This document shows positions 20,626 through 49,000 of a stretch of DNA of 64,000 bases, piece by piece (the stretch's first letter is position 1; every line of letters starts with the position of its first letter). Location: assembly GCF_964355755.1 (NCBI RefSeq), contig NC_092673.1, positions 23,743,648-23,807,647 of the forward strand, read 5' to 3'. The notes below the pieces were generated by a model. That model saw nothing but the letters and a program-made list of their open reading frames with translations, did not search any database and was not told the origin of the DNA. A program made the position numbers and the translations under genes. The DNA is from Antedon mediterranea. Taxonomy: Eukaryota > Animalia > Echinodermata.

Positions 20626-21323
20626 GTTGACGAGTAACATGACATGTTTAGGTTCATGTCATGTAATGTAATGTAACCAGTCAACCTAAACATTTCATGT
20701 TACTTGTCAACCTAAACATGTCATGTTACTAGTCAACCTAAACATGTCATGTTACTCGTCAACCCTAAACATGTCATGTTACTCGTCAACCTAAACATGT
20801 CATGTTACTAGTCAACCTAAACATGTCATGTTACTAGTCAACCTAAACATGTCATGTTACTAGTCAACCTAAACATGTCATGTTACTAGTCAACCTGAAC
20901 ATTTCATGTTACTTGTCAACCTAAACATGTCATGTTACACGTCAACCTAAACATGTCATGTTACACATCAACCTAAACATGTCATGTTAGTCAACCTAAA
21001 CATTTCATGTTACTCGTCAACCTAAACATGTCATGTTACTAGTCAACCTAAACACGTCATGTTACTAGTCAACCTAAACACGTCATGTTACTAGTCAACC
21101 TAAACACGTCATGTTACTAGTCAACCTAAACATGTCATGTTACTAGTCAACCTAAACATGTCATGTTACTAGTCAACCTAAACATGTCATGTTACTAGTC
21201 AACCTGAACATTTCATGTTACTTGTCAACCTAAACATTTCATGTTACTTGTCAACCTAAACATGTCATGTTACACGTCAACCTAAACATGTCATGTTAGT
21301 CAACCTAAACATTTCATGTTACT
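20626..21323. repeat. 26-bp minisatellite GTCAACCTAAACATGTCATGTTACTA, ~25 copies, plus one inverted copy at its left edge
   Basis: Tandem array at 20680-21323 and inverted unit GTTGACGAGTAACATGACATGTTTAGGTT at 20626-20654. Confidence 0.95.
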
Positions 21324-22084
21324 CCAACTTGTGCACAATACCTTGACACAGTTTACATATCATCGAATCGATTCCTGATGCAACAATTCCTGCCATTTCT
21401 ACCGCAACTACTTTCTTTTGTAGTAGTCTATGCTGATTGGTTTCTGACGAATTTCAATCAATTAACTGAAGATTAGAAAAATGAGGCCAAGTGCTAGTTG
21501 ACCGTACGATGATATCGGATTATTTTCAAAAGCGTGTCAACTATATAAATTGAAAATACTAATACAATTATTCCTATTCTATTTTTCATTTATTTTATTA
21601 TACATCAATAATGTAAATAGGCGATGAAATGTCTTTCTATATTCTTACTGTAATTAATCTTGTCATTACTGACTTGTATTAACTTTAAATTGCTTATTCT
21701 GAACATGAACAAATATGTATTTAATTAAATCACATTATGAATGTATTATCATATATAAACACGGTTTCCATACCTTGTTTATAGGCCATAAAGTTGAATT
21801 CCATCGTAAGGGTTTGTGTTTTAGAAAGGGTATTTTGGTTTGTAAAGCACACTTTATTGTAATTATATTTATAAGGCAGTAACATTTTTTTAGAACTTTA
21901 TTTTGTATATCTGTGTTGTATTTTTAAAATAAAATTGTTATGGTGCTATTTTTAGGTTTTATTTATAACTAAAATACATAAGTACATGTTTATGCTATTG
22001 TTTCTAAGAAATAAAGAAAGATTATACAGTACATTTAAAATTTAAATTTAAAATAGTTACTCTCAATATAGCTGGAAATAACTG

Positions 22085-22800
22085 CAACTTACTACGCTTG
22101 CTGCAGCTGTACAACTACTAAGTTTACTGTAGCTGCACAACGGCTACGCTTTCTATAGCTGCACAACTGCTACGCTTTCTATAGCTGCACAATGTTTATG
22201 CTTGCTGCTGTACCATTTGCTTTACTTTCTATAGCTGTACAGTTGCTACACTTACCTACGGTTTATTTGCTATAGCTACATTTGCTATACTTCATACTGT
22301 ATGCTAAACAATTTCAACAACAACAACAATTTCTATGCTTACTACAGCGCTGTACAACTGCTTTCTGTAGCTGCACAACAAAGCTGCTGCACTTACTATA
22401 GCTGTGACAATTGCTTTGCTTGCTATAGCTGCACAATTGCTACATTTGCTATAACTGTACAACTGCTTCTTTTGCTATAGCTGTACAATTGCGGCGCTCG
22501 CAATAGCTGCACAACTGCTTTTGCTATAGCTGTACAATTGCGGCGCTCGTTATAGCTGCACAACTGCTTTTGCTATAGCTGTACAATTGCTACGCTTGCT
22601 ATCTGCATAATTGCTAAGTTTTCTATAGCTGTACAACTGCTATGATTACTATTGCTACACAATTTCTAAGCTTGCCGAACAGCTTATTTTGCCAACAGGT
22701 ACTATTGCTATAGCTGTACAATAGCTTCAGTTACTAGCTGTACAATTGCTGCAGAATTTCTATACAATTGCTATAGCTGCACAACTGCTATAGCTGCACA
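22085..22800. repeat. Degenerate minisatellite built on GCTATAGCTG(C/T)ACAA(C/T)TGCT
   Basis: Motif recurs throughout with variable spacing. Confidence 0.85.
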
Positions 22801-22899
22801 ATTTTTTTTAAATGGCCAAATGACTTTCTAAAAATCAATTATGGGATACCATTGTTATATAATAAAATGTACAGATTCGTTTGATTGGATTGTGGGTCA

Positions 22900-23115
22900 C
22901 ATGATCCCTGGATAGAGACTCTTTGTGACCTCTGGATAAGGATGCTTTGTGACCCCTGGATCAGGACTCTTTGTGACCCCTGGATAGGGACTATTTGTGA
23001 CCCCTGGATAGAGACTCTTTGTGAGCCCTGGATAGAGACTCTTTGTGACCTCTGGATATGGACGCTTTGTGACCCCTGGATCAGGACTTTTTTGGCCCCT
23101 GGATCGGGACTCTTT
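22900..23115. repeat. 24-bp minisatellite, consensus about GACTCTTTGTGACCCCTGGATAGG, ~9 copies
   Basis: Direct tandem repeat that generates the LCDPWIxT ORF 22885-23127. Confidence 0.9.
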
Positions 23116-23838
23116 ATTTATTTTTAATAATAAATGATTTTATGCCTCAGAGTTTATTAGCTTGTTAATTGCTAAAATAATCTATAGATCACCGGATTAA
23201 ATGAACTAAATTCCCATGATACTACATTAAAAGCCGAGGTAATCAATGCTAACTTCTATGTCAATGTAGAAAGTTATAATAATTATAATTATATATCACA
23301 GCAGACAAAAAACTTACTGATGATCGATTCTTTTCCAACTATGGTTCAAGCGAGCACAGAGCACATGATCATAATGTCATATTTTATCTATAAAGTTATC
23401 CTATAATGGGCTCAGTAGATTAAGAGATTTCAGAGAAAATCTGTCATTAACCCAAATAAAAACAAGTCAGCTATCAATGAAAAAGTCCTACTGGTACAAC
23501 AATGCAAAAACTTTTTGTCTAGCCTATTGGGCTGATACAGAGAGAATCAGAAACTGGAGAGTGAGAAGGAATGCTTTTTTTGTGCTGTAGGTTTTCCATA
23601 TTCCATATCATGCTATATATAGTTTTATCTGCCACTACATTCACTAAGACTAAAATTGTACTAACAGCATGACAATGTACAGCTCAAGTTGTCTCTAAAC
23701 ATTACTATACTACAACAATCTCACTATGATGAACCCCTCTCTTTGTAGTAGTAGTGTGGGTATGGGTTTCTATCAAAGGAACAGAAATTTAAAAAAAAAT
23801 GCACAAACACATGGTTAATTTAGTTTTAATGCAAAATA

Positions 23839-24430: not shown

Positions 24431-27400
24431 CTGTGGTCCTATCCTGGTGGGGTCAGCCATGCATTTCAACCAGCTGATTTACATGCAAATGAGCAAACTG
24501 GACAGGGTATTCAAGCGTGAGTCACAACACACCTCCCCATTCTAAAAGGGAAGCATTCCACCTTTCTCGCACTAGCTTGAATACACCGGGGAAACTCCCT
24601 GAAATGTGGGTACTGTACGTCCTCTTCTACATCATCATGGTAAGTGTAAAGCTCAGGAGGCATACTGATGTACAGATATCAGCTCCTGCATCACTATACT
24701 TACCATCTGCAGCAACTTCCAAGATCAACCTGAGTTCAACAAATTTACATACTTACCTTGTGTTCAGAGGGTACTTCAGTTACCATTCTAACCTGGGGTT
24801 GGTCTGTCGATACTGTAGTAACCTCCACTGTAGTCAATCCCACATCTTTCGCAGCCTGTTTACAACTAGTCCGATCAGATCCAATTGTGACCGAAGTCAC
24901 TGGAGTGTTACAGACTCCAATACTGGCAGATCGGATATCAGCAACAGGAAGAGCGGATATCACAGTTTGTCTCTCTTTCGGAACGATGGGTAATTTTCGT
25001 CGAGGTAGTTCAGACTTATCTACCAGATTGGTAGGTAGTTGCGGCCATCGTCTGTGTCGTTCTGAGTTCGTGGACTCCATGTTGGTTCCGGAATGGTGGG
25101 TAGTTGCCGTCGTCTACGTGATTCTCTGGTACCATCAGTTTTAGTTTGTCCTGGCTTCTCCCCTGGATTAACCACTGGGAAATCAGGCACTAACACTGGT
25201 ACAAGAGCAGTGTGTACTATGTGTCCTTTCCTGACCCACAATGCTAGCCGACCATGAGTCAACCGCTGAGAAATCCAGATTAGCACTGGCAGATTTTGAC
25301 ACCGATTCTTGTCTTCTTTTCTTTCTTGATTCACTTGTTGGTGTGTTAGGGTTAGGCATTTCACCAGTTGGTAAAATGCACTCTTGTTTTGTGGTCTCTA
25401 GTTGTTCCATGGTAATACATGGGTCTGCTACAGGAAGCATGTCCGATGTTGGTGAAGAGTAAGATGCCAAAAGTTGGAGTTCATCGGATATGCCAGGAAG
25501 TCTGTTTTTACCTTGCCGCCCTGCAGCCTTCATCGTGGAAAGAAATTTCCCATTGGGCACGTCCTCTTCTCCAATTGATGACTCCGCTTTCGGCCTACTC
25601 CAGATTTCAGAAGCTTGATAATGGTTCTCGGCTTCATCTTCGTGTGAGGAGATGTGATGATGGGTTGAGCTACAGAGAGCTAGTATAAGTCATAGACCTA
25701 GTACGGGACATTAAATCATTTCCGACTTTGCTCCCATGCTCTCTAACCCTTTGCGGCGACAGTCAAACCTCCTATATTTTTCAAGAGCTTCGGTGATAGT
25801 AGCACTTTCCGTTAAACATACTCACCAGCCTCCTTGTCGTGACACCAAGTGCAGAACCATTCCACCTGTAGCTTTTGCCCTCTTTCCTAGTAGATGGACG
25901 AGATCCTGCTCGGTCCAGAAATTTATTGCAACATGAAGCATCCTTTAAAACATACGATACACTTAAAAGTATAAAAGTATTGCCAGAGGTCAAAGACTTT
26001 CATTAAAATGTGTCTAAAGGTATGTTGTGCCACTAGTAATTATCCGGTTTAAGATGAATACTGTGTATAAACTAGGAATGTAAAATGTCAAAATACCAAT
26101 GCCTGGAATATTAAAATGGGCATAAAACTATTAAAACATTTGTGATACATTCACCAATTGCACAGCATTCAAATGATGACGATACTTCAAATCAAATCTT
26201 GGTAATTCTCAACGAACAGACTGGCACAGAATAAAAGTTGTAGTAACACTTTACCATTTTTTATTTAGCATAGAATACAATATGGATTAAAATACTGATA
26301 GACGTAGTAATAAATACAAGCACACCAGTATAATAAAATATCGTCAATGCAATAACACGCACACAAATATTGCAAAATGGCAGCTGGCAATACAAATACA
26401 GTTAAAATATTGCACCAGCAAACCTGCAATAACAACCCATGAAAAATGAGATCGGGATCCCGATCGGGATGCGGTGGAATCCCACCGGGATCGGACGATC
26501 CCACCGGGACGAACTCGGGATTTTTTTTTCGCAATATCGGGATAGACGGGATTTTTTTAAGAATTGCGGGATTTTGTACGCAATATCGGGATCGTGTTTT
26601 TAGACTGCGGGATTTTGTACGCAACAACGGGATTGGCGGGATTTTGTTTATAAAATTACGGGATTTTGTACGCAAGATCGGGATTTTGTACGCAAGATCG
26701 GGATTTTATACGCAACATCGGGATTGGTGGGATGTTGTTTATAAAATTACGGGATTTTGTACGCAAGATCGGGATCGACAGGATTGTGTTTGTAGACACG
26801 GGATTTTGTACGCAACATCAGGATTGGCGGGATTTTGTTTGTAAACGTACGGGATTTTGTACGCAACATCGGGATTTTGTATGCAGTATTTTAATTTCAT
26901 TGGGTAATACAGTAATTTGTAACAGACGGTAAGTAAGACGGTATGGTGTAAAACGTAAACATAGTAAGGTAAGTGTGATGATAATAATACGATAAGAAAT
27001 CAACTCGTTGTTAGTATTACTAAAGATGAGGTGTTAAATAATGATATAATAATGTAATTAACTATATAACGATCAAAGTAGCCGTGGCGGCGCAGCAAAA
27101 GGTGTGGTACATAAAGTAAACTGTCTGGCTGGTACATGTATTTAAAACAAAAATAACTCAATTCAAAGCAAAAACAACATTAACCCTAATCAAATAATAA
27201 CTTACCGTCTGTTACAAATTACTGTCTTTCCAATAGCTTAATACCCTCAACAAGTTAACAAAACTCAACTTGGTCATCCAATATCGTAAAAACAATGAAA
27301 ACCTATTCAATAATATAAAAAACTCCAAAGTGTTGTTTTAACTCGTTATTAAATCATAAACAACAAATCGTAAAAGATGGAACACTGATAATAATGCCGG

Positions 27401-28832
27401 ATGAGTATTGCAGAGGGTTTTGAAAATCTCATATTTTTTGGCTATATTGTATTACTATGACATATTATCCTACATCGGCAGATCGGTGTTCAATCATTTA
27501 CGATATTAATACAAATAATTATTTAGAATAAATAATGGACATTGTTAGTAAAACAAAAAACTTATCACATATTTTATTCTGAAATAAAAGAAAAAAACAT
27601 CAAACAACCAAAATGTTGCTAATTACTACCGATAACAATGAATCAGTTTAATCATCATTTTAGTGTAAGATTTAAGCACAAAATTACCGTAATGAAATTT
27701 GTATATTTACTTTTATAACAGATTTCTTTTAATTTCTAGACGTCTTTCCTTCATGGCGTAAAGAGTCTAAATTTTGGCGGGATTAAATTTATTCGGCATA
27801 GTCGTCTTAAATTTACATCTCGATTTTTTGGCGAAATTTTAATCGGGATAATGCGCAAAAACGAATTTTAACCGGGGTATCGATCGGGGTTCTTGGCGGG
27901 ATCCCGATCGATATCCCGGTTAAAAATCCCGTTCGTTTTTGCGCATTATCCCGATTACAATTTCACCGATGATCGGGACGTCGTCCGGGACCCCGATATT
28001 TTCGACCGAAATTCCCGACCAAAAATCCCGATTTTTCGTGAATCCCGATAAAAATCACGATGAAAATCCCGATACGGAATGAGTAATCGGGATTCCCAAA
28101 AGATCGGGACGTCGTCCGGAATTCCCGACCAAAAATCCCGATTTTTCGTGAATCCCGATGAAAATCCCGATACGGGATGGGTAATCGGGATTCCCAAAAG
28201 ATCGGGACGTCGTCCGGGATCCCGATATTTTCGACCGAAATTCCCGACAAAAAATCCCGATTTTTCGTGAATCCCGATGAAAATCCCGATACGGGATGGG
28301 TAATCGGGAAATCCCAAAAATCGGGACGTCGTTCGAGATCCCGATATTTTCGACCGAAATTCCCAACCAAAAATCCCGATTTTTCGTGAATCCCGATACG
28401 GATGGGTAATCGGGATTCCCAAAAGATCGAGACGTCAATCGGGATCCCGATATTTTCGACCGAAATTCCCGACCAAAAATTTCGGCCGAAAATATCGGGA
28501 TCACGGCGAGATCCCGGCGGGATCCCGACCGTGATATCGGCGGGATCCCGGATGTTTTTTCTATAGGAAGCAACTAGATTATTAAAAAGACGTCGATACA
28601 GTTTAACAACACTTACCAGTATAATTTCTCAAGATGAAAAACCTGACTGTTTTTTATTGATAACATCTTTTTCGTCCGTCAGTCAGGTTTTTCAATCAAA
28701 GTTAAAATTAGTGGTGCTACTCAGTTCAATGGCCACACCTAGTATCCCACCAGGTGATACGGCCTAGTAAACTGCCCACTAATCCTTCAACTACAGCAAA
28801 AAAGATTTCCGAGCTTCTGCTCGCAGCGCCAA
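24430..28832 (-). mobile_element. Internally deleted Gypsy LTR retrotransposon (minus strand), related to the + strand element next to it
   Basis: Minus-strand PBS TGGCGCTGCGAGCAG (tRNA-Ser type) at about 28817-28831. Its 5' UTR (26335-26435 plus 28568-28600) is homologous to 28843-28970. PPT/LTR junction GGGGAGGTGTGT-TGTGA at about 24520-24540 resembles the one at 36049-36066. Decayed GC-richer ORF remnants at 24.7-26.0 kb; no RT recognised. Confidence 0.6.
26436..28567. mobile_element. Non-autonomous CMC/EnSpm-like (foldback-like) DNA transposon with CGGGAT subterminal arrays
   Basis: Termini CCCATGAAAAA / TTTTTTCTATAGG with 2-bp TSD AA. Left arrays read CGGGATTTT and right arrays AAAATCCCG (inverted). 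Removing it restores CCTGCAATAACAAGCAACTAGAT, collinear with the homologous UTR at 28865-28888. Confidence 0.75.
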
Positions 28833-29599
28833 TGTTGTTGTTGTATTGACGTTTTTTTTTAATAATCTAGTTGCTTTTCATTGCAGGTTTGCTGGTGAAA
28901 TATTTTATTATTATTTGCATCAGCCATTTTGCAATATTGTGTGTGTGTTACTGCATTGACGATATTTTAATTTGTATCGTACTCTTTGCTTAATAACATC
29001 TGTCATACACTGTAACTAGATTTAGGGGCATAACAACCCAGTAGGAGAGAGACAATTTTTAGATCATGCCGTCTAATAAGGTTCTAGTTAACTTTTGCCC
29101 AGTGCAAGACCTTTATGGAGTCCCTAATGTAGGGAAGAAACGGGCAACTAGAATAGTTAAATGGCGGGCTACCCATGGCAACATTACGTCCTCTAATATT
29201 CACCAGATACACGAAGTAGCCGGTACAACCAGGTTAGTTGACTACCTGGATTTTCAACCGAATCCGAGTTTAGGTGGAGGCGTAGGCCAGATGATTGATA
29301 ATGTGGCACCTCTAGTGGAAAAACAGAATAGAGCGGCCAGAAGGGGGTCGCAGGTGTCACAACCTGTAGATATGGAAGGGGCATACCTGGTGCAAAATGA
29401 CGGGGGCCATAGTACCACGTCCTCTCATCGCCTCAGGCTACTCCTTTATTAGACGTACCAGGTACGTATTATACTGCAGGACCTGCTAGTGATCCTCGCT
29501 ATCTCGAAGGTGGGCTTAGGGCTTATATGCCGTCCACCTCCGCTGGGCGTTCTGACCAGACGTAGGAGCTACATCAGAAAGCCATCTCCAATAACCTTA

Positions 29600-30365
29600 G
29601 GTCGTGTTTATACAACACCCTAAATTTGAACACGGCTTTAATTTTTAGCGTGTTGTTCGGACCGAGGTCAACCCACCTTAACGTTTGCTGTTATACTAGA
29701 AATCACGATACCATGTTATACCGGAAGTTTCATCAACACGCAATGCATGCTAGGATAAAAGGTCAAATCGTTGATCGCGCTTGAATTGTCTGAGTTGTCA
29801 ACAATCATCGTCGCCTCCTCGCTGTCCGATGTATTCGCGCGGTTTTTACCATTTTCATTATATTGTATTCGTTCACGTTTGCATTGTTGTTTATTTTGTT
29901 CTCGGTTCATTTAAATTAATAAAAGTTATTTTAAGGGTTTCATTGTTTCATCTATACACTATGCCCGACACTATGGAAGAAGATGCCATTTTTGCGATGT
30001 TATTTTTTTTATTCTGTTTGGAGTGGGAAACGATAGAGGCCTACTACCACTACGAGTTGGCCCCACTAGGCTAGGCGTAAGACGTGGTAGGAGGATGATT
30101 GCTGGCAGCGAAGCAGCAATAAATGGGCCCAATCTTGTTAGCAATGATTGATATTACGACCTGTTTTAACGAGAGGTCAAAATATACCCTGAGGACACTT
30201 CCAACACGGTAACGGCGACCGGGAATCCACCAAATTTTAGGATTCAGCCAAGTAGCCTTTTTTGCAATTAAAATCTCATTACACGGAATCGCTTTGTTGT
30301 TATACAACACACTTTTCGTAGGCGTGTAGAATATGCGTGTAATAGCGTGTTGTATAAACGCGCCC
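29600..30365. mobile_element. PIF/Harbinger MITE inserted in gag
   Basis: TIRs GGTCGTGTTTATACAACAC / GTGTTGTATAAACGCGCCC with TSD TTA at 29597-29599 and 30366-30368. Confidence 0.85.
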
Positions 30366-31327
30366 TTAGACTCGTGTTTTAGCTCTAGGGAGGACGAGGA
30401 GGAAAGACTCCCCAGGAGACTATCTAAAAACGCTAAGTCTAAAACTAGGGCTCTCCGGCGATCTCCATCGACCAACGATAGTGACCTTAGTAGGGATGGT
30501 ACTGATACTGATAGTAGCAGGAGTCGGATAGACATAGTGCATGCAGGGGCTAGGACAGCAGTGGAGTGTCTCAGGACCACCCCGAGAATCAGGCACTATG
30601 AAGGCCGGCAGGGTCTTTTAGAATGTAAGAGAATGCGTAAAAAAGATATACCTAGGTCTCTAACGTTTAGGGGGAGGGGAGACAACTGGTCCTTTTTTAA
30701 GCGACGATTGGCTTTATTTATAGATGAGCAGGAACTCACAAACCGTGAAAGTAAGGACGTCCTTACTTGGTGTTTAGATGGGGCGGCGGCTGAGTTCTAT
30801 GTGAATCTAATAGAAATGGACGCTGATATGGGCTTTAGGCGGATCATTAGAGCTTTCAACCGACGCTTTAATGAGGACGAGCTCCCCGCGGTCCTCCAAG
30901 CTGAATTAGAGACTGCTATGTAAAATGAGGGGGAGACTATAGAGGAATGGGGAGATAGAGTGCTAACCCTGACTAGGAAGGCGTTGAAGGATTTGCCTAA
31001 GGAGTGGATCCAGGAGCAAGCCTCCGGAACCCGCACCTACTGGCGGCCAGAACCAGCCTGATCACCAACCAACAATACTCCTACTACGGAGGCCCGTTTG
31101 GCCGCTGTGGAGAGTAATTTCCAGACGTTGAATACCAATCTGGGACGGGTGAAGAGCACCGTGAACACGGAGATTGCCGCCATACGGGATCAATTGGATC
31201 AGCTCATGCGTTTCATGAGACCAGGCGAACTAGCTTGCTTTGAATGTAAGGAGGTGGGACATTTCCGCAGGGATTGTCCGAGGTTAGCGAGCCGTTTGCG
31301 TCAGGTTAGTGGCAATGAGCAGGATCC

Positions 31328-31334
31328 GTTAAAC
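31328..31334 (+). promoter_or_regulatory. Candidate -1 ribosomal frameshift site G-TTA-AAC at the gag/pol junction
   Basis: Sits just before the gag stop (31340). The -1 frame is open from here into the protease region, and GC-rich sequence follows. Confidence 0.55.
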
Positions 31335-31429: not shown

Positions 31430-33700
31430 ATGGCCAAGCCTGCAAATACAGAAGAGGTAGCACCGGATCCTGTCATCGAGCCATCTACAATTATCTCGGA
31501 GCTGATTGAATCATCTACACCGGGGACAACCAAAACTGAAGAGACTCAAACTCGGATGGTTATCAACAGGGTGAAATCGTTGAATGCGTTGCATGCAACT
31601 GCTTTTGTAAACGGTACAAAAATTGACGCAGTCGTGGACACTGCAGCGGATTTTACTATACTATCCGATAAGGTTTATTAAAGTCTAGATCCGGCACCAC
31701 CTGTGGTGTCCACCCTGTCCTTTACTTTGGCAGGAAGGGGGACATCTATGCCAGGTTCGAAGGTGGGGCCTCTACAGTTTACATTGGGAACCAAAGAGTA
31801 CCAGGAATTCTTTTATGTTACCCCCATCAACGACGATATGCTCTTGGGCGGGGATTTCCTTCATCCACAGGGAGCCGTTATCGATTGTGGAAATTTTCTT
31901 CTGGCAATTGGGGGCAGTGCCATATCTCTAAGAGGGGATTCACCGGTAGAACCTAGGGTTGCCCAGGTAACAGTGGCTAAACGGAGAGTAATCCCTCCTC
32001 ACTCAGCCGCTCATGTTAAATGCAAACTTGTGACAATTTATCAATGCCTGATTTCTTTATAGAGCCAGTTTCAACTACTGACGATGTGGCGATACCGGCG
32101 ACTTTACATCTACGCACTGATGCGCCATGCATCTGTGTCATCAACACATCTGACCACTACCTCACTATGAAAAAGGGTAGACAGATAGGTACGGCAAGTG
32201 AAGCTGAAGGGGTGAGTGTGTTCAAGACGGAGGCGACTCCGACCGATAATGCTTTGTTGAACCAAGCGGACGATGACGGTAACCAACCCGAGGGGGTGCC
32301 GGTGCACCTAGTGGGCATGTTGGACTCTTCGAGATCTAATCTCTCAAGTGAAGAGGCTGACGCGCTCACTAAGCTATTGGTTGATTACCAGGATGTCTTC
32401 GCCGCTCATCAATTCGACATTGGCACCTTTGGTGATATTGAACACAGCATCGACACTGGAGATGCCTCACCGATCAGGCAACGGCTCCACCATACTCCTC
32501 TGCGCTTTGTGGAGGAGGAAGAGAAGGAGATAAGGAAGATGTTGGAGGCTGGTATTATTCAACCGTCCATGTCCGAGTGGGCATCACCGCCTGTGTTGGT
32601 CCGGAAGCGCGATGGTTCTGTGTGTTTTTGCATTGACTATAGGGCTCTTACCAACATCACTACTAAAGATGCGTATCCATTACCTCTGATTCGTGATTGC
32701 CTGGACACACTGTCGGGGAATATCTTGTTTTCTAAACTGGACACGATTTGGGGGTACTGGCAGATTAAGATGAAGGATGAAGACCGTAAGAAGACAGCGT
32801 TTATCACCAAGGATGGCCTGTATGAATTCGTGAAAATGCCATTTGGTCTTATCAATTGTCCTGCAACCTTCTCCCGTGCCATGGGTTTGGTGCTGCGGGG
32901 ATTGGCGTGGGATACTGTATTGGCATTTCTCGATGACATTGTCGTGCTAGGTAAAACGTTCGAAGATCATCTCAGCTCATCATTTCGTATTAACAACTTT
33001 AAACTTAAACCTAAAAAGTGTGATTTCTTTCAGAAACAGGTTGAATTTTTAGGGCGAATCGTTGGGGAGGATACGGTGGCGGTGTCCGATTCGGATATAA
33101 AGGCTGTTCAAGACTGGCCGACACCTACCAATCTGAGAGAAGTACAGCAGTTCTTGGGGTTGGCTAACTACCATAGACAGTTCACTGGGAGGGGGGAGGA
33201 ACAACAACAAGCGTTCACCGGCTTGAAAGCTGCTCTCGTTCAACCTCCTCTACTCGCCTTGCCGAACGGGACTGATGAATTTATTCTGGATGTCGACGCT
33301 TCAGATCAAGCGCTAGGAGGCGAGCTGCTCCAGGTGCAGGAAGGTAAGGAGAAGGTAATTGCATATGCAAGTGCCCGTCTAACTCATGATGAACAACGGA
33401 ACTATTGCACTACACGCAAGGAGTCGCTGGCAATTGTGTTCATGACAAGGCATTTTAGGCACTACCTTCTAGGCAGACCTTTTAGAGTGCGGACTGATCA
33501 CAACAGCCTGACCTGGCTCCTCAACTTCAAGCAACCACAGGGGCAACTCGCTCGGTGGATCGAGGAGCTGAGCCGGTACCACCTGCTGATTGAACACCGC
33601 CGAGGACAACACCATGGCAACGGCGATGCTCTTTCTCGCCGACCAGAAACGCATGACAGGCAGTAGCCACGAGCGGCCTGCGCTTGAAGGGCTGTTCGTA
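31430..33700 (+). pseudogene. pol: Pol: aspartic protease, reverse transcriptase, RNase H (stops/frameshifts)
   Basis: AVVDTAADFT and MLLGGDFL (PR); WASPPVLVRKRDGS..FCIDYRAL, MPFGL.NCPATF, AFLDDI (RT); DVDAS, NYCTT.KE, RTDHNSL, QLARW (RNase H). Confidence 0.95.
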
Positions 33701-33913
33701 CTGTCAACGAGCAGATGCAAGATGGTCAGCGTTCCAGGATGAAGTGGACGACGTTGTGCCCATCGCCCACGTACACCAGGTAGCTGTGGACCACCCGGGG
33801 GGTACTCCAGGAGTCGCTGGCAATTGTGTTCATGACAAGGCATTTTAGGCACTACCTTCTAGGCAGAAGGTCGTCCTGGTATTATTACTAATGTTATTAG
33901 TTCTTGTTTATGC

Positions 33914-34212
33914 AGGTGCAGCTGAGGAACAAGACGGTGGTTTTAAATCATGACAAGCTGAAGCCCTGTCGGGATCGACAACTTCCTAAATGGCTGGCTG
34001 ATTTTAATTTACATTCTCTTTCTTCACCTAGAGATCCGGATGCGGGACCGTTGTATTGTCTATGTCGCCAGCCCTGGGCCGGCTCATTTATGATACAATG
34101 TGACTATTGCGAGGTGTGGTACCACGGTGCATGTGTGAATATTGCACCATCTGAGGCCTTGGACATCGACTTTTATCGATGTGCGGACTGCAAGTCCTCG
34201 GTTAACAATTAA
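33914..34212 (+). pseudogene. Integrase C-terminal remnant ending in a PHD finger
   Basis: VVLNHDKLKPC (Gypsy IN C-terminal vvH.drLKp motif), then LYCLCRQP...MIQCDYCEVWYHGACV...YRCADC, a complete C4HC3 PHD. The integrase core is deleted and replaced by a duplicate of 33420-33477 at 33810-33867. Confidence 0.88.
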
Positions 34213-34243
34213 GTGCTCGCGTTTATCTTCTCCTCTCTCAGGT

Positions 34244-35771
34244 ATGGACCAGTTACCGTTCGCTGACGGAAGTGAGACGGAGGTTTCCGAAATGGAGGAA
34301 GATGTGCTCCTGGCTAGCCCGGGTGCGCGGGAGGAATTGACCCCGAAAGAGGAAGCGGTGGCTGGGGATACGGGAGGGGCTTGCCCGGTGGCGAGCACCC
34401 CAGCCAAGCAGAAACCAACATGCCATCTGGGATGTGGTCGAGTGGCCAACATGCGGGTCCGCGCCACGAAGATGCATGCTCCGGTGTGTTTTCGACCACT
34501 GGAACGAAGTTCTTGGCGGAGGGCACGAGTGCAGTGGCGGGCACTCACCAGCTTGGCGACGGAGGGCCTTGGTAAAGGCAAGACACCGGAGGACTTGAGG
34601 TGTCTCCTGAACGTCCAGCACCTAATGGGGGATGGCACTGACGTCCTACCTCCGGATAGGAAAACTCGTGGTGCCATCCTTATGCTGACACGGGTGATTG
34701 GAGGAAGGAGGCCCCCGCCTCTCACGATAGCTCCGATTATCAGTCACCCATCGGCTCTCATACACTGGCGCTGTGTGATTGCTCTCATCGCTTCTTTTGG
34801 TGAAGAGCTGTTGAAGGAGTGTGGTCGTCGGGCTGATGAGAAGGATCCGGCGGGGGACCAGACCGCCAAAAAGCCGACGAAGAGGAAAGCCGCAGGTAGA
34901 GAGCATGGAGAGCGACCGACCAAGCGTGATGCCCCGGCACCGAAGGATGGTAGATCAGTGGCGGCGTCGGGTACATCGGCCTCGCTTGGTTCGGCGCCCA
35001 AAGTGTTTGATGCCTGTTTCCATCTGGACCGGTTGCAGAGGGACCTGCAACTTTCCCGACGAGGGGACCTCTGGGACGTGGAGCGAGCGGTGCGGGTGGG
35101 AAGTGGAACACAGCCTGTGGAAGTGGTAGGCGGGATTGCCCTGTTTGGCGATCCAACCACTTACCCCACCGAGCGGGAGATTGGCGGATTGACGAGGAAC
35201 GGCTCTGTGGTGGGTTTGGGAGTGGCTCCTGGCTACTCGCCGACAACGGTTCAATTCGATAGGCTTCTGGCCCTAGCCCGAACTCGAGATGTTCGAGTAT
35301 TCTGGAGAGTGGGGTTGGACCATTCGGCCCCGCCTACGGATTGGCCGAGACAAGATCAGCTGCTAAAGACGGTGTTGGGTCGTTGCTTGGACGGCCGCCA
35401 CCACCGCATCATGTGTCTTGAAATTTCTGGCGTTCAAGGCGATGTCACTGGGGAGGAGTGCTACTATCGTGTCTTGGACATCCTACGTCTAAGTCGCGTG
35501 TTGAAGGAACAGCGGCTGCTTCTGGCAGACTACGCTTTCACGGAAGCCGTAGCGACCGCCTACCTCCGGTATTTCCCCAGGACATACTTTAGCGTGACCA
35601 GCCGAGTGATTGCTGATGGGGTCCAACGAACCGGACTATCCTCCTGCCGGATACCCAGTCGGAGCACCTCATCTGTTGGGGGCGACCGCCGTCGCCGTGG
35701 GACAGGTGCTCGACAAGAGCCCCATGCAGGTCATTGATCTGACATGGAAGAACGGTCGAGATCTCCTTTGA
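34244..35771 (+). CDS. Retrotransposon ORF3: Zn-finger-like segment, HWR-motif region and TatD-like (amidohydrolase TIM-barrel) domain; frameshift near the C-terminus
   Basis: VFDACFHLD, VGLGVAP, WRVGLDH, QDQLL and YFSV align in order with TatD motifs D.H.HLD, G.HP, GE.GLD, Q...F and Y.S. After a deletion near 35635, another frame gives GAPHLLGATAVAVGQVLDKSPMQVIDLTWKNGRDLL*, like the TatD C-terminal helices. ATG 34244 is preceded by TTTATCTTCTCCTCTCTCAG. Confidence 0.7.
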
Positions 35772-36289
35772 GCCCCTGGCTCACCCACAACCAGAAGTTT
35801 TCAGTTTTGCCAGAAATGTTCCGTTTCAAAAGAAAATAGGTCCGTTTTACATTTATTTTCATTTATATCTTTCAGGTATCCAGGGAAGCGGAAGACGGTG
35901 CTACAGGCATGTCCCACGGCCAGTGACTACCTGAAGAGATCGTTGGGAGCGGTCTACATAGCTACGGGTATCGGGTATTTCTCACGTACGCAAATCACCC
36001 GGTTCACCTCCGAGGTGGATCCAGGACGGGGTGCCCGCTTTTCAAACACGGGAGGAGTGTTGTGAATGGCGCCCGCTGGGTAAACAGACCACCCCTCCGA
36101 CCGGACGAGGGCGTCTCCCCGATAGCTTGATTTGCATACAGGGGGTATGCAGATGTTAACGTGGGACCTCGACGCCGCCCGAACCGGTCTATTCGAAGCA
36201 GGGAACCAAGCAAACAAGACGGAAGACCGATTATATATATTGACTTGGACTTGCTCATTTATTTATTTTTTAATTATTTATTTATTCAA

Positions 36290-36345
36290 GGGATATTCAG
36301 TGTGGTTGATGTATTTTGACTTTTCATCAGCTTTTAATACAATTT
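36290..36345 (+). pseudogene. Tiny LINE RT fragment (Rex1/L2-like)
   Basis: SVWLMYFDFSSAFNTI corresponds to the RT motif D.S.AF.T. Confidence 0.55.
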
Positions 36346-36678
36346 TTTTCTTTTCCGATACCCTCTATACAAAAAGGATCAGAAATGCCCTTTCTGACCT
36401 TTGACCCACATACCAGGGCATCTTCATATCTCTGTAAGTACTGGTCGTAGAAAAATTACAGGAAAGTATGTTTTTGACCTTTGACCTATTTTATTGTATA
36501 TTTTCGTATGTTCGTATCTTAGTAACCAGTGGGCGTAGATGAGCGTTATTTGCGTCAAACTACTCATAAGGTCAATGTTTATATTAGTTCTAATGGAAAA
36601 GATTCGTGTAAAATGACCGGAAGTCATTATTTTGACCTTTGACACATATTCATTATTTTAGATTTCTCAGTAAATACA

Positions 36679-37471
36679 TTTTTAGTCGCGTGGAAGCGAC
36701 TCTATAGTTCACTATGTCGGTCGGTCGGTCTGTCTGTCTGTCTGTCGGTCTGTCTGTCGGTCTGTCTGTCGGTCCGGTATCACTATGCGTTTTATCGCTT
36801 TCTGACCTTATCTTGATATCAGTTTAATCTAGCTAGGTCAATTTTTCACAGTATATTCCTTATGGCCAGGAATCAATGTGGTTATGTTTTCACGGTGCGC
36901 AATAAAAAATTACGCGGTCTACGCATGATTTAACGAAATCACGTTTGTAATCATATCTTCACAACCATGAATCACAATTAAATAAAATTTGGTACTCATA
37001 AATTTCAGGGCATAAATCATCATATGGCAATACAATTACGTGCGTAGCGCATGTAACGCATGCGTACGCGCGCTTAACATTTTCAAAATTTATTTTCGAT
37101 GAAATAAGAGTACATTTCAGGCAATTTTAAGCGTTTACAAAATTGCCATGAGTGCGCATATTTTTGCACGCGCATTGCGCGTTAAATGTTATTGCGCACT
37201 CTTTTGCCCGATTTCTGTTTTCTTGACTTACTTTTCAACTCGAAATTACGTTATACGAGCACGTCGAAAGTGACAGGCTACGCACGTGTAAATTAAAAAA
37301 AAATAAATGTTTTTAAACATTTCAACATTTTTAAACATGTTCAGTAATTTCGGTCAGTATAGTTCACTATGTCGGTCGGTCGGTCTCTCTGTCTGTCGGT
37401 CTGTCTGTCTGTCTGTCGGTCCGGTATCACTATGCATTGTAGCACGCGATTTAATGGCTGTTGGCCTTGTT
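36679..37471 (+). mobile_element. HINE/Helentron-type non-autonomous element, copy 1
   Basis: Starts TTTTTAGTCGCGTGGAAGCGACT (hairpin), has two (GTCT/GTCG)n tracts and ends GGCCTTGTT. Near-identical copy at 48344-49145. Confidence 0.75.
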
Positions 37472-37754
37472 TATATCTCAGTAACCACTAAGCACAACTT
37501 CGTCAATTTTGTGTCAAAAGATTCAGAAGACTCTTACAGTATTTATATTCACTATATTAAAAAATGGATAGAAACTATGTTTTTGACTTTTGACCTATTA
37601 TACCAGTATATTTGTTTATATTTACTCTAATGAAAACAAATGCAAATGTACAAAATAACCGAAAATCATTATTTTGACCGTTAACATTTTCTAGTCGTGT
37701 CATGAATAAATCTCGGGTCTCGAGTATAACATTTTAAATTTGACCAAATAATAA

Positions 37755-39412
37755 GTGCGGCGATCTGACAGACGTTGGGCTGGAATATCAACTGATTTTG
37801 CCATAGAACAGTGTTTTATGCGTAGCATAAAAACAAGAGGAGGTCTAACAAGAGGGCGAGGATTAACAGAAATTCAACGACTTGTCTGGGTCCTTTCAAC
37901 TCCAGTCTGCGCCAAGATCAATCATTCAATGCAAGACTTCACTAACGTTTTGTATACTACCAGTGAACAACATAAAGAAACAAACAAACAAATTGTACAA
38001 TCAATGACAAACCAAAAGGTCGCCGACTACACATTTCGGAAAAAGAGCCAATCCATTACAATGAACTCTAAAAGCGCCTTGAAGATAAAAGATGATGTGG
38101 TCAATGTAGATCCTTTACTTCTATTTCAACGACTTGTAACTGCCGGCACAAGATGCGATAATGTATCAGATATATTTAGATTCACCAGATATGATGAGGT
38201 CTGCAAATAAAGCTAGTTTAGCTGATAGTTTGTTGTCAACAGCAATCGAGGTTGCTCCAGAACCTCCTGATCAAATTCAGTACGTCTTAGATGGAGGAGC
38301 ACTACTTCATAAAATTCCATGGACAAGAGGGGCTTCAGGGGTGACATTATGAGAGTATACACTAAATATGTTTCTCACAAATATGGAAAACCCATTGTTG
38401 TTTTTGATGGGTACGATAACTCACTAAGTACAAAAGACTGTACACATACAAGGAGAAGTGGTGGTGTCAAACGTTCAAAACAAACAAAGATTCATTAAGA
38501 TTTTGGGAAATAGTCTTGAAAAAGAAGGTTGTACTGTTCACCACGCAGAAGCTGACGCTGACTATCTTGTGTCGAAGATGGCTCTGTCCTGTGCAGAACA
38601 AATAGGCACGGTTGTCATCGCAGATGATACAGATATCCTGGTCCTCCTTATCCACCATGGTGGTCACACCAAACATAATGTATGGTTCAAGCCAAACCAA
38701 AGGAAAGAAACTAAAAAGGTGCAACGATGTTGGAACATTGCGGCAACAAGACTTGACCTTGGCAGCGATGTTTGTAAATAATTATATCCTATTTTGTCAC
38801 ACGTTCCTTGGATGTGACACGACATCGCGATTTTTTGGTATTGGGAAAATCAAAGCAGTAACTAAAGTAAGAAGTGACTGTTTCTTTTCTGAACAAGCCA
38901 AAGTGTTTATGACTTGTAAGGCAAACAGACAGGAGGTAATTGCAGCGGGTAATAACGCCATTTTGTCTTTGTATGGTAGCAGCGATAATGAAAACCTAGA
39001 TGAATTGAGGTTTCGTAAATTTCATGAAAAGACAACATGCAGTACTAAAGCAGTTCATCCACGTTCTTTACCCCCAACGGCATCAGCGGCAAAAAATCAT
39101 AGTCTAAGGGTGTACCAACAAGTTCAAGTTTGGCTTGGAAATGAAGAAAATGTACCTCCAGATAAATATGGATGGAAGATCAGCCAAGGCAGGATGATAC
39201 CATATTTGACGGACAACCCCCCAGCACCACAATTGCTCCTACAAATCATAAGATGCAAATGCAAAACAGGCTACTATAATATGAAATGCAGCTGTAGGAA
39301 CAATGGATTAGATTGCTCCATGGCATGTAGTGAGTGTCGAGGTGTATGCGCAAACATTTCACTAGATGATAATGAATATACCGATTCTGAAGATTCAACA
39401 ATGGGTTTGTAA
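37755..39412 (+). pseudogene. Academ-like transposase C-terminal part: XPG/FEN1-like nuclease plus Cys-rich finger; frameshifted
   Basis: Motifs D..IEQ..MRS.K..GGL..GRG, DGGALLH, VVFDGY, EADAD, DDTDILVLL, GCDTTS.FFGIGK, LPPT, and terminal CKC...CSC...CS.AC..C...C.N, spread across several frames. Confidence 0.75.
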
Positions 39413-40539
39413 AATCAGACGATTGGTAAATATTCTCAACCAGGCCTATTTGGATATTTTTCTGTTTTGTGTGTTTTTAGAGTAAATGTAAACAGAATAA
39501 TGAATAGTTAAATGTTATCTTGGGTGCTGATCTATGAAGAAATATAACACCAATATATTGCCCCAATTACTAAACGTTTTCTGGATAGATATCAAAGGTC
39601 AAAATAATTACTTTCGCATTGACTATATACACAGACATTTTTTATTAGAGTGGATATCCTTCTGAGTTGTTTGACACAAAAAATGCTCATCTAAACCCAT
39701 AGTTCACAAAGATACAAATATATAAATATAATAGTTGAAAGCTTCCGGTCATTTTCTGTAAAAATAGTTTCATTAGAGTAAATAAATATGGTTCTTCTGA
39801 ATTGTTTAACACAAAAGTTACGCTTATTGGTCACCGAGATACAAAAAATAAATTTAGTGAGATATGAAATAAAGAATATATGTTAACGGTCAAAACGATG
39901 ACTTTTTCATTAGAGTGAATATAAACATAGACCTTTTGAATATTTTGACACAAAAAATGCTCATCTACGCCCATTGGTTACAAAGATATGAATATACCAA
40001 TATAATAGGTCAAAGGTCAAAAGAGTAGTTTCCGGTCATTTTTTTGTAAAAAGTTTTATTAGAGTGAATATAAATAAAGGTCTTCTGAATTGATTAACAC
40101 AAAAATTACGAAGTTACGACTATTGGTCACCGAGATACAAAAAATTTACTTATATTCATTATTTTATATTATTTCACTATGTCAAAGGTCAAAATGATGT
40201 CGTCTGGTCATAATACACAAAACGTTTTCATTAGAGTGAATATAAACATAGACCTTCTGGGTATTTTGACACCAAAAACGCTTGTTTACGCCCAGTGGTT
40301 ACCGAGATATGAATATGCCAAAATAATAGGTCAAAGGTCAAAAACATGGATTCCGCTCATTTTTGATCAAAAACTTTCATTAGAGTGAATATAAATATGG
40401 GTCTTCTGAATTGTTTGACACCAAAATTACCAAGTTCGGCCAAGCGGTTACTGAGATATACAAATATATAATTTGACCCTCATGACCTCTTGACCCCTTA
40501 AAAAAGTATGTTCCACTGAACCGATTTTGGTAGATTTTG

Positions 40540-40996: not shown

Positions 40997-41329
40997 CCCA
41001 GCTAACACAAAACGTTTTGAAAACGTTTTTATTAAGTTATATTGAGGTTTTTACCTAACCTTGTTCATTTTGAACGTTTAAACATCGTTTTTTAAACGAT
41101 ATTTAATAGCTTTTTTTTTATTAGTTTAAAAAAAACATAGAAAAAACGTATTTGTTCGGGAATTTTAAGGTTATTTTATAACGTTTTTGAAATAATCTAT
41201 AATTAACTCATTGAGGACATTATAAATTGGTTATTTAAAGGTTTATTTAATACCTTCTAAACTTAACGTATAAGTAACTATAAAAAAACGTTTTGAATAT
41301 ATATTGTTTACGTTTTCATGAAAATGTTG

Positions 41330-42530
41330 ATAAATAACTAATATTGAACTGATTAGAAACGTCATAAATTAGTTATCTTAACGTTTCACTTATTACGTTG
41401 TATAAATAACCATTAATGAACTCTTTAGAAACGTCAAAAATTAGTTATTTAAACGTTTCACTTATTACGTTATATAAATAACCATTAATGAACTCTTTAG
41501 AAACGTTGTAGATTGGTTATTTGAATGTTTTTTATTTAAGTCTTAGGTACAACGCTCAATTAACCATAATTAAACGTTTTGAATTTGTTTTTTTTACGTT
41601 GTGATAAAACGGTTAAAATAACTAATATTGAACTGATTAGAAACGTCAAAAATGAGTTATTTCAACGTTTCACTTTTTACGTTATATAAGTAACCATAAA
41701 TGAACTCTTTAGAAACGTTGTAGATTGGTTATTTGAATGTTTTTTTATTTAAGTCTAGGTACAACGCTAAATTAACCATAATTAAACGTTTTGAATTTGG
41801 TTTTTTTACGTTGTGATAAAACGGTTAAAATAACTAATATTGAACTGATTAGAAACGTCAAAAATGAGTTATTCCAACGTTTCATTTTTTACGTTATATA
41901 AGTAACCATAAATGAACTCTTTAGAAACGTTATAAATTGGTTATTTGAATGTTTTTATTTTAAGTCCTAGGTACAACGCTCAATTAACCATAATTAAACG
42001 TTTTGAATTTGTATTTTTTACGTTGTGATAAAACGGTTTAAAATAACTAATATTGAACTGTTAGAAACGTCAAAAATTAGTTATTTTAACGTTTCAATTA
42101 TTACGTTATATAAGTAGTCATAAATGAACTCTTTAGAAACGTTGTAAATTGGTTATTTAAATGTTTTTATTTTAAGTCCTATGTACAACGCTCAATTAAC
42201 CATAATTAAACGTTTTGAATTTGTATTTTTTACGTTGTGATAAAACGGTTTAAAATAACTAATTTTTAACTGATTAGAAAATAGTTACAAAAAAAAAAAG
42301 AAGTTATTTTAACGTTTCACTTATTACGTTATATAAGTAGTCATAAATGAACTCTTTAGAAACGTTGTAACTTAGTTATTTAAATGTTTTTTTACAAACA
42401 AACAAACATTGGTACAAACGCTCAATTAACCATAATTAAACGTTTTGAATTTATGTTTTTGACGTTGTGATAAAACTGTTTAGAATAACTAATATTGAAC
42501 TTTATTAGAATCGTCATAAATTAGTTAATT
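41330..42530. repeat. Left subterminal tandem array of the CACTA element, ~212-bp period
   Basis: AAACGTCAAAAAT recurs at 41641, 41853 and 42065. Confidence 0.9.
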
Positions 42531-46028: not shown

Positions 46029-49000
46029 ATGGAACAAAGATATGCTGTAGTTATATTTAAAGGCACGGAATTAGAAGAAGAGTCGGTTGAAATTATATCA
46101 GAGAAATGGTTAGCAGAAGTGATAGATAGTGTAAGTACACTTACACTTACACTTAATGTTTGATGGAAATAGTTTAGGCTAGTGCCTATTAGATTCCATT
46201 TCTAGCCGAAAATAGTTGTCAAGTCTAGACTTAAAGATGTTCACTGAAGAGGCTTGTATTACATATTCAGGCAGAGAATTCCAGTGATGTATGACTCTGA
46301 TGGTAAAAAAGTTGACCCTGCACATAAGATTTCCTCTAAGTTTTGGACGATATAGTTTTAAGCTGTGTCCCCTGGTTCTGATGTTGTGAGACAATTTAAA
46401 TAAATCTTTTGGGTCAATATCCTCAAAGCCTTTCAAAATTTTGAAAGCTTCAATCAAATCTCCTCGTAGTCTTCTTGTCTCTAATGGTTGAAGATCAAGA
46501 TATTCTAACCTTTTTTCATATGGTAGATCACTTATTGACTTGACCATCTTTGTAGCTCTTCTCTGCACCTTCTCCAAGATTTCTTTGTCTTTGTTATAGT
46601 AAGGAGACCAGGACTGTATACAGTATTCCATATGTGGACGGATGTATGCCTTGTACATGACCTGAAAACTTTCTTTGTCAATATTTTTGAATGTTCACTA
46701 TTTTTTTTAGATTGTTTGTTATTCTCTCTCTTAAGCCTCTTTCTCACAGAACTGTGTTCTGAAAATGTATGAGGAATAATATATACTATATTTAGAAAAA
46801 GAAATCAATAAATTATTCATATTTTGTCAGAAACTTTTTATTGCCTGGGTATACCTCGACCCTATTTCACCGAATGATTCCTGGTATTATAGTCCAATGT
46901 GAATATTTGTAATATATGTTGGTAATAATTTTGCAAGCACGCCTGTCGGAAATGGGCTATGTGTCTTACACAGATATCTTGTGCTTACTTACTCATAAAG
47001 AATGTTTAATTCAGGAATTATGATTTTAGTTAAACCATAGTCGTGTGATTAGTTTATAGTAAAAGTATACAGACGAAACCAAGTACTAGTAGGAACTGTG
47101 TTTGTGAATAATTGAATTTGAATTGAATTGAATTATACAAAATTTAGACTGAAAACATGTTTGCTTCATGTTGTTTGACATACATAAATACAATGATTAA
47201 TATGTGATAGTATATTAAAAGTTCAATCCTGTCTATAGGAGGTCAAGTAAACTGCTGTCCTATTTTTAGTTTGTATTGCTGCAAGTGAAATAACCTAAAA
47301 ATTATGCTGTTAATGTTCTATTTTGCAAAAAAAGAATTGTAATTGTTTTTTTTAGGACAACCAAATTGTCAGAGCAGTACATTGGCCGGTTGGCCGATCA
47401 AACATTATAAAATTGGCGTATAAACACGAACAACCAGATAGAGAAAAATGGAAATTATTCAAAATCAGAAAAATAAGCAAATTAACAACTGATTTTGAGT
47501 TAGCAAAAAAAATGAGAAGGAAAGGTGAAGATACGTCAACGTTCGAAGAAGATGAAGATGATGGAAAAAGAAAAAAGAAGAGAAACACCTTGATCTATTC
47601 TGATGAAAACGATGAAGGTAGGCTGTAATTGTGTTTAATTACGTAGAGTCTTAAACTATAGTTTAGTATTCTTAAACCGGACTTTAGTCGTAGTTCAAAG
47701 TTCGACTTGAAAAAGTCGTAGTTCGAGCTATTACTTCAAATTCGATTCATAAACGAAGTAGTCGAAGTTTGCAGTTCGACTTAATGAAGTAAAGGTTTTA
47801 GTCGAGTTGCACACGTCTGAGTAAAAAAGGCTATACATTGGCCAATGACAAGAGAGTATTTGAGGAGCAGACGAAATTTTGCGCATTGATATCACTTTCC
47901 ATTTTCTTACAAAACTTTTTACGCATCAGGACTATATACATGAAAAATAATTTTAATCATTAATTAATTAAGATCAGTATAAATTTAACAGTGAAGTATT
48001 AACAACAAACGAAACCATGGCAGTACGGTAACTTTCATATTTTCTAGGCCCCCAACAAAGTATGATCGCAACAAACCACGCATTTCATAGCGTGACAAAA
48101 AAGCGCTTAGCCCCCTAAACATTCCATCGCTTGGTGAATTTCCGCATCTGCCATTGTCGCTATGGCATGACGTAGTTCAAGTCGGACTTGCGCGAAGAAA
48201 ATAATGTAATTTGTATACAGTTGTAAATAAAGATGATTTTCATTATTATAACTTATACCAATGTATATTTAATTAAGCTAATATAAAAATAGATATTTCA
48301 TTCTTCAATATCTGGCCAATATAACAACTCAATGACTGTTACGTTTTTAGTCGCGTGGAAGCGACTCTATAGTTCACTAAGTCGGTCGGTCGGTCTGTCT
48401 GTCTGTCTGTCTGTCGGTCTGTCTGTCGGTCTGTCTGTCTGTCGGTCCGGTATCACTATGCGTTTTGTCGCTTTATGACCTTATCTTGATATCAGTTTAA
48501 TCTAGCTAAGTCAATTTTTCACAGAATATTCCTTATGGCCAGGAATCGATGTAGTTATGTTTTCACGGTGCGCAATAAAAAATTACGCGGTCTACGCACG
48601 ATTTAACGAAATCACGTTTGTAATCATATCTTAACAACCATGAATCACAATTAAATAAAATTTGGTACTCATAAATTTCAGGGCATAAATCATCATATGG
48701 CAATACAATTACGTGCGTAGCGCATGTAACGCATGCGTACGCGCGCTTAAAATTTTCAAAATTTATTTTCGATGAAATAAGAGTACGTTTCAGGCAATTT
48801 TAAGCGTTTACAAAATTGCCATGAGTGCGCAGATTTTTGCGCGCGCACTGCGCGTTAAATGTTATTGCGCACACTTTTTGCCCGATTTCTGTTTTCTTGA
48901 CTTAATTTTCAACTCGAAATTACGTTATACGAGCACGTCAAATGTGACAGGCTACGCACGTGTAAATTAAAACAATATAAATGTTTTTAAACATTTCAAC

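Follow-up and report, generated by a model that had tools for sequence, protein, structure and literature searches.

The window, a stretch of 64,000 nucleotides from the crinoid Antedon mediterranea, is AT-rich animal DNA whose GC-richer part at ~29-36 kb is a decayed Gypsy/Ty3 retrotransposon. Between the pol/PHD stop at 34212 and the polypurine tract (PPT), this element carries a third open reading frame (ORF3) in the position of env. An earlier note, made from the letters alone, had described a ~500-codon ORF here, and we confirm it: the frame is open from 34139 to 35737, and its first ATG, at 34244, lies 32 nt past the stop. An open frame of at least 400 codons arose in 1 of 2000 shuffles. 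ORF3 is almost certainly element-borne TatD cargo.

ORF3 and its linkage to Gypsy pol

All motifs named by the note were located, in the correct order for a TatD: CHLGC at 34421, SHPSALIHWR at 34742, DACFH at 35009, GVAP at 35219, WRVGLD at 35303, CLEISG at 35414, and LLLADYA at 35516. The note had also placed a TatD-like C terminus across one frameshift. The C terminus is present in another frame (Table 1), but the break near 35609 is a ~20-codon deletion plus a frame change when compared with P0001. P0001 is an Antedon mediterranea protein that is 88% identical to the window ORF3, differing from it at 20 of 182 residues. The terminal peptide of the P0001 gene model is encoded in the window at 35876-35920, behind an acceptor-like site (region 35709-35920), and the sequence hints at a second splice near the ORF3 end. 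At the 5′ side, the window and, judged by eye, 5 of 6 relatives have an acceptor-like AG after the stop of pol. The env gene of errantiviruses, such as Drosophila gypsy, likewise lies between pol and the PPT with an acceptor-like site ahead of its ATG.

On its own, the window ORF3 gave no Pfam match and no PDB sequence match; when either this ORF or P0001 was the query against Pfam and PDB sequences, little of use was returned, apart from the score of P0001 above the Pfam TatD (PF01026) cut-off (29.3 vs 27 bits). An exhaustive phmmer search gave 226 relatives at E ≤0.001; 150 of them were listed, and 149 of the latter together with P0002 were scanned against Pfam. A TatD match at E ≤0.001 was found in 146 of the 150 relatives scanned, and the DEDDy exonuclease family was absent among their Pfam matches. 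The AlphaFold model of the unbroken ORF3 part has a predicted local distance difference test score (pLDDT) of 77.7. The top 13 Foldseek entries listed for it are TatD-family proteins or annotated metalloproteins/amidohydrolases (E 7e-5 to 7e-3, probability 1.00); TatD-like relatives formed the alignment behind the model, which is hence not independent of them. Profile and structure thus bear out the TatD-like fold proposed in the note, and ORF3 differs in this from env, whose class of fusogen fold it does not show. Compared with the viral structures of BFVD, the ORF3 model had no match at E ≤0.001, and no relatives appeared in scans of IMG/VR. Among 21 proteins looked up, the relatives with a species name belong to crinoids (Antedon, Anneissia), bivalves (Pecten, Argopecten, Ostrea), and a brachiopod (Lingula). 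The relatives are 400-1100 aa long and carry TatD at the C terminus.

Upstream of TatD, the protein is predicted to fold into a second domain, of a C2H2-type zinc/helical kind. Each of its two Cys and two His (C-x3-C-x8-H-x4-H) occurs in 61-64 of 65 rows, and a P..L.HW[RK] motif in most rows. The note's C-x3-C...H segment and SHPSALIHWR motif are both there, but the family motif is longer than noted and the window lacks one of its His residues; this loss is private to the window, since P0003 and P0152 retain the residue. The domain had no Pfam match, no Foldseek match in PDB at E ≤0.001, and no usable match in the ESM Atlas, and VIA-align against 48,161 chains gave a best Z of 3.8. A confident model without a structural match does not thereby prove a new fold. 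Some relatives are long forms with a degenerate TatD (P0110/P0165 of Ostrea edulis, 1102 aa; P0124; P0123), and P0110, which recurs in several sequencing-run contigs, apparently has two copies of the zinc/helical domain. These proteins are candidates for domesticated host genes.

The note had asked whether ORF3 homologues always lie between a Gypsy IN-PHD and a PPT/LTR (IN, integrase), and we find them behind IN-GPY/F-PHD in other, divergent elements. In two collection scans, TatD was accompanied by the N-terminal domain in ten loci (2 of 80 and 8 of 21); the other 78 of 80 and 13 of 21 loci, which are ordinary TatDs or chance matches, were not counted for linkage. The end of a Gypsy pol lies directly upstream of ORF3 in 6 of the ten. 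L002, L094, L097, and L098 have the order gag, protease (PR), reverse transcriptase (RT), RNase H (RH), IN, GPY/F, PHD, then ORF3, and in L086 and L095 the PHD is directly upstream of ORF3. The remaining four (L001, L082, L087, L092) end within or just ahead of ORF3 and are too short to tell; no other genomic context of ORF3 appears among the ten. The Ty3/Gypsy order of gag followed by PR-RT-RH-IN is complete in the first four loci, and the window holds PR-RT-RH and the IN tail. The 8.9-kb element L002, which has three open frames, was assembled as a circle, and so was L098; circular assembly of contigs is frequent for long terminal repeat (LTR) elements.

Further evidence joins ORF3 to the element. 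The PPT pattern preceding TG is shared by the window and 4 of the 6 relatives. Contig depth is similar from pol through ORF3, and single contigs span the boundary between the two. The RT-RH of the window is 58-59% identical to those of L002, L094, and L097, while the TatD identity to the same loci is 25-34%; among all four, TatD is 25-38% identical against 58-66% for RT. Since pol-linked loci occupy both halves of the element TatD clade described below, the sequences favor pol linkage as the ancestral state. Five of the 6 linked loci come from one symbiont metagenome-assembled genome (MAG) record set, probably from one animal host, so the independent sources are 3 including the window; the named animal proteins entered the comparison as protein sequences. 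Among 6 matches in a search for long fused forms, there was no fusion of pol to TatD. The gene model of the protein P0045 (RVT_1 plus TatD) looks chimeric and did not enter the linkage count.

Several Gypsy elements and ORF3s stand in records whose titles name MAGs of bacterial symbionts (Sedimenticola, Thiodiazotropha), namely L082, L086, L087, L092, L094, L095, L097, and L098, and the proteins P0013 and P0064. The ORF3s of these records are annotated as 'TatD family hydrolase'. The elements in them are likely co-assembled animal DNA.

Catalytic residues in the family and in Antedon

We scored eight catalytic and metal-binding residues (HxH, the bridging Glu, two further His, and E-x-D) in a 100-row alignment. 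All eight are kept in 77 of 92 complete rows, which gives the clade the residue set of the Group II TatDs, and both glutamates are kept in 86 of 95 rows; 5 rows have at most 5 of the eight residues. The catalytic His, Glu, and Asp about which the note had asked are thus present in the wider family, and by their sequences most clade members look like intact enzymes.

The window ORF3 is quite the opposite. It keeps 1 of the 8 residues, the other 7 being substituted, which agrees with the ligand substitutions reported in the note and leaves it without the Group II active-site set. P0001 has lost 6 of the 6 ligands that it covers, compared with 9 losses among 30 further columns of high conservation (Fisher p 0.003). 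At all six lost-ligand sites the window has the P0001 residue, four of them in the shared frame and two in the C-terminal frame. Several further losses adjoin the ligands, and the catalytic pocket seems to have been remodeled as a whole. Both glutamates scored here have equivalents in human TATDN2 and E. coli TatD, where they are essential (PMC10711561).

Because the Antedon paralogue shares all six ligand losses it covers, this ORF3 lineage is likely a pseudo-nuclease, and we consider it very probably dead in catalysis. That selection retained the TatD fold after catalysis was lost is probable, at a lesser strength. Two points weigh on the other side: the dead lineage is represented by two sequences, the window copy and one database gene model, and in the unbroken part of the window alone the enrichment of losses at ligands is weak (5/6 vs 10/27, p 0.07).

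The stem leading to the Antedon pair (0.52-0.61 changes per site) lies inside a crinoid clade, in the rest of which P0005 is intact and P0004 partly disarmed. In Anneissia japonica, P0004 keeps 5 of the 8 residues, and P0005, P0006, and P0008 look intact. As one crinoid species has both partly disarmed and intact-looking ORF3 TatDs, the sequences suggest a stepwise or repeated loss of catalysis in crinoids. The note had left a choice between an enzyme and a dead protein. Each describes a part of the clade: most members look intact, and the Antedon lineage looks dead.

The window copy and its surroundings

The features of the element are collected in Table 1.

Table 1. Gypsy element and ORF3 features, in window positions.
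Feature	Position	Strand	Evidence
gag start, decayed, with N-terminal helix-hairpin-helix (HhH)	29066..29452	+	Pfam HHH_3, E 8.7e-6
769-bp foreign high-copy repeat within gag	29595..30363	n/a	Skipped by contigs of four sequencing runs; depth inside mostly far higher
Remaining gag with CCHC knuckle, stops, and frameshifts	30364..31330	+	Six-frame reading; tblastn against L002 gag, E 5e-9
pol PR, RT, and RH, broken in places	31580..33666	+	Pfam RVT_1, RT_RNaseH, weak gag-asp_proteas
Rearranged junction at the site of the missing integrase core	33667..33877	+	Self-blastn; no Pfam rve match
GPY/F-like segment and PHD finger closing pol	33878..34212	+	Frame change near 33912; PHD Pfam E 5.5e-10; tblastn to L002
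Splice-acceptor-like pyrimidine tract and AG	34221..34241	+	Just 5′ of the ORF3 ATG; sequence
ORF3 acidic N terminus, predicted disordered	34244..34399	+	pLDDT <50, residues 1-43
ORF3 C2H2-type zinc/helical domain with SPxxLxHWR motif	34400..34852	+	pLDDT 91; predicted template modeling score (pTM) 0.86
ORF3 TatD-fold domain, first six strands, metal ligands substituted	34988..35609	+	Model, alignment, Foldseek
TatD C terminus, other frame, after ~20-codon deletion; both E-x-D acidic residues substituted	35610..35771	+	tblastn of P0001, P0004, P0005
PPT-like tract	36050..36057	+	Sequence; TG next; pattern AAA..GGG.AGGA. then TG, common to L002, L086, L094, L098
Candidate 3′ LTR	36058..36299	+	TG start after PPT; CA end uncertain, right end inferred

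The gag of L002 opens with a segment that looks similar, by eye, to the HhH of the window and had no Pfam match in L002. The 769-nt GT..AG skip in gag was rejected as an intron: it also occurs in a DNA-type run and spans a repeat of very high depth, so we read it as an insertion. The AT-rich stretch 33868-33916 was likewise rejected as an intron, since it encodes the GPY/F segment once a frame change is allowed for. No integrase core (Pfam rve) was found in the window copy, and a 59-nt RNase H piece (33419-33477) is duplicated at 33809-33867 by self-blastn. In run X9, one contig has ~1.4 kb of extra sequence ahead of 33878, which would fit an integrase in other copies. The 64-kb window contained no 5′ LTR, no second LTR copy, and no target-site duplication. 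The window copy cannot be active, because the integrase core is absent, gag has stops, and there is no 5′ LTR. The element family is present as many diverged contigs in the sequencing runs of three organisms.

Abutting the gag start, at the expected site of the 5′ LTR, an inverted-arm repeat element spans 26334-28970 (arms 26390-26435 and 28875-28920) with internal GGGATTTT-rich arrays. Other repeats lie further away. The segment 36366-40464 has inverted arms (36499-36644, 40180-40325), decayed ORFs (37755-38210, 38606-39412), and a Cys-rich tail, had no significant Pfam match, and is possibly a DNA transposon. The inverted arms in 9571-12506 are long (349 nt) and almost perfect (99% complementary) and probably mark a young foldback element or one of the miniature inverted-repeat transposable element (MITE) type. 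An interspersed repeat of very high copy number occurs twice, at 36716-37475 and 48389-49149, with 95-96% identity between the two, and minisatellite arrays with units of 26, 24, and 212 nt lie at 20686-23117 and 41002-42501.

Origin, function, and significance of the TatD cargo

Scored with the element profile, long mollusc host TatDs reach 200-208 bits, compared with 121 for YcfH, 60 for TATDN3, and 52 for TATDN1; the nearest solved structure by sequence is that of E. coli YcfH. The mollusc hosts are long, carry TatD at the C terminus, and branch in keeping with the relationships of their hosts. They are named 'uncharacterized', and from their architecture and motifs we tentatively take them to be TATDN2. 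We built two trees of 66 and 57 rows; the second left out five bacterial rows of biased composition and nine further rows and gained five pol-linked loci. In both, the element TatDs form one clade (SH-aLRT, a Shimodaira-Hasegawa-like approximate likelihood ratio test, 100), which falls in one group with the mollusc hosts, L003, and L041, separate from most bacterial TatDs (99 and 98). Among the paralogues, TATDN2 is the one of the HxH class that has a long extension at its N terminus (PMC10085689). ORF3 has this architecture, a disordered extension before an HxH-class TatD, as judged from pLDDT and from the 400-1100 aa of its relatives.

From these sequences, the TatD was likely captured from a TATDN2-class gene, possibly that of an animal. 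Several points weigh on the other side. The mollusc hosts were selected by the element profile itself. The rows of both trees were hand-chosen from proteins and loci, both searches were of the 'quick' kind, and TATDN1 and TATDN3 were left out. Finally, the supported group is a three-way polytomy that includes the bacterial-looking L003 and the algal-looking L041.

The best explanation overall, to which we give a probability of about 0.5, is that this Gypsy ORF3 combines the zinc/helical domain with a captured TATDN2-class TatD, and that the Antedon version is a non-catalytic nucleic-acid binder. Judging from the acceptor-like site, ORF3 would, like env, be expressed through a spliced subgenomic RNA. 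By analogy with TATDN2, an intact ORF3 would act as a metal-dependent 3′ ribonuclease on R-loop RNA or on structured RNA-DNA intermediates of the element, the N-terminal region or zinc/helical domain binding the substrate. Clearance of R-loops may then ease transcription or replication of the element, with less damage and less of a silencing signal. The Antedon version would retain binding without cutting and may serve as a protector or scaffold.

On the same analogy, we only tentatively name RNA or R-loops as the main substrate of intact members, at somewhat below even odds. The main intermediate of reverse transcription is a plain RNA:DNA duplex. The TATDN2 N terminus is required for R-loop binding (PMC10711561). 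Against the proposed mechanism, TATDN2 has minimal activity on a plain RNA:DNA duplex, and the catalytically dead TATDN2 E593A binds R-loops weakly (both PMC10711561). A wider scenario, which we regard as rather doubtful, is that an old marine-invertebrate Gypsy clade took up TATDN2, the R-loop RNase of the germline, joined it to a zinc/helical nucleic-acid-binding domain of a new fold, and expresses it like env to manage its own R-loops or RNA-DNA intermediates. Selected pseudo-nucleases would then have arisen repeatedly, with crinoids as the present case, and domestication may have befallen some of the long forms in oysters.

Other explanations of ORF3 have to be weighed. Intact members may be DNA-directed 3′-5′ single-stranded DNA exonucleases or apurinic/apyrimidinic (AP) endonucleases like TATDN1, TATDN3, and YcfH, which would trim cDNA ends, clear damaged cDNA, or aid integration-gap repair together with the PHD-bearing integrase. 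Most characterized TatDs act on DNA (PMC10085689), and YcfH as the nearest solved structure and the HhH DNA-binding motif in gag point the same way. However, the host proteins closest to ORF3 resemble TATDN2, and the human TATDN2 shows little nuclease activity on DNA (PMC10711561). The loss of catalysis in several lineages (the 5 rows with at most 5 of 8 residues) also speaks against an obligatory replication step, and we find this explanation unlikely.

It is distinctly unlikely, in our view, that ORF3 serves counter-defense, with the intact form destroying small RNAs derived from the element or immune-stimulating nucleic acid, and the dead form shielding such nucleic acids or acting as a decoy for host partners of TATDN2. 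The faster divergence of TatD than of RT among the elements would agree with it, as would the apparently repeated loss of catalysis beside a nearly invariant zinc domain, and inactive nuclease folds serve in piRNA pathways (PMC5408684). Fast divergence is, however, usual for accessory ORFs.

A functionless Antedon ORF3, its substitutions being decay under relaxed selection, is very unlikely in our estimate. The copy is plainly dead, it differs from P0001 at the 20 residues given above, and its private lesions include the zinc His and the deletion; moreover, the enzymatic ORF3s of rotifers gave no sign, within genomes, of deviating from neutrality (PMC5408684). Yet the losses are concentrated on ligands and shared with P0001, and along the long Antedon stem the frame stayed open and structural residues were retained. 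Lastly, a host TatD gene or pseudogene lying beside a Gypsy remnant by chance, which the missing 5′ LTR and target-site duplication and the labeling of many homologues as ordinary animal or bacterial genes in public records might suggest, is refuted by the pol linkage in other loci, for the same order recurs in six of them, a PPT follows ORF3, and depth and single contigs run on from pol into ORF3.

Gypsy elements with an enzymatic ORF3 are already known. In the Juno and Vesta LTR retrotransposons of bdelloid rotifers, ORF3 is a DEDDy 3′-5′ exonuclease or a GDSL esterase (PMC5408684). These resemble our element in being Gypsy-type with a non-env enzymatic ORF3 after pol and a predicted role in 3′-end processing of RNA or single-stranded DNA, the activity there being predicted as well. 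They differ in that the ORF3 here is a TatD barrel and not a DEDDy enzyme ('TatD' occurs 0 times in the main text of PMC5408684), is fused to the zinc/helical domain, has homologues in echinoderms, molluscs, and a brachiopod, and has an Antedon lineage without catalysis. Human TATDN2, an R-loop RNase (PMC10711561), is similar to ORF3 in its C-terminal HxH-class TatD, its long disordered N terminus, and the same two glutamates in intact members; unlike it, ORF3 is element-encoded and has an extra folded zinc domain, and the window lineage lacks both essential glutamates. The Group II TatDs YcfH, S. aureus TatD, and TATDN3 (PMC10085689) share the fold and, with the family, the HxH, but they are cellular DNA exonucleases or AP endonucleases with profile scores well below those of TATDN2-like proteins. 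Errantivirus env shares with ORF3 the position and the acceptor-like site.

The note knew of no characterized retroelement-encoded TatD. We found no description of a TatD-bearing retroelement either, within the open-access literature (Repbase, subscription journals, and supplements are outside that scope), and TatD as ORF3 cargo was not found reported there. TatD is unmentioned in the text consulted of a review of accessory domains (PMC6338049), and a paper that maps a 'TATDN2' model in the squid Hox cluster describes no retroelement cargo (PMC6962438).

In summary, LTR retrotransposons are known to carry few enzymatic cargo genes, and the TatD brings to them a further nuclease fold, with a tie to the genome-stability enzyme TATDN2. 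Many 'TatD hydrolase' entries of animals and bacteria in databases are likely element-derived, which affects gene-family counts and MAG annotation. The natural pairs of intact and disarmed ORF3s in crinoids make it directly testable whether the element needs catalysis or binding.
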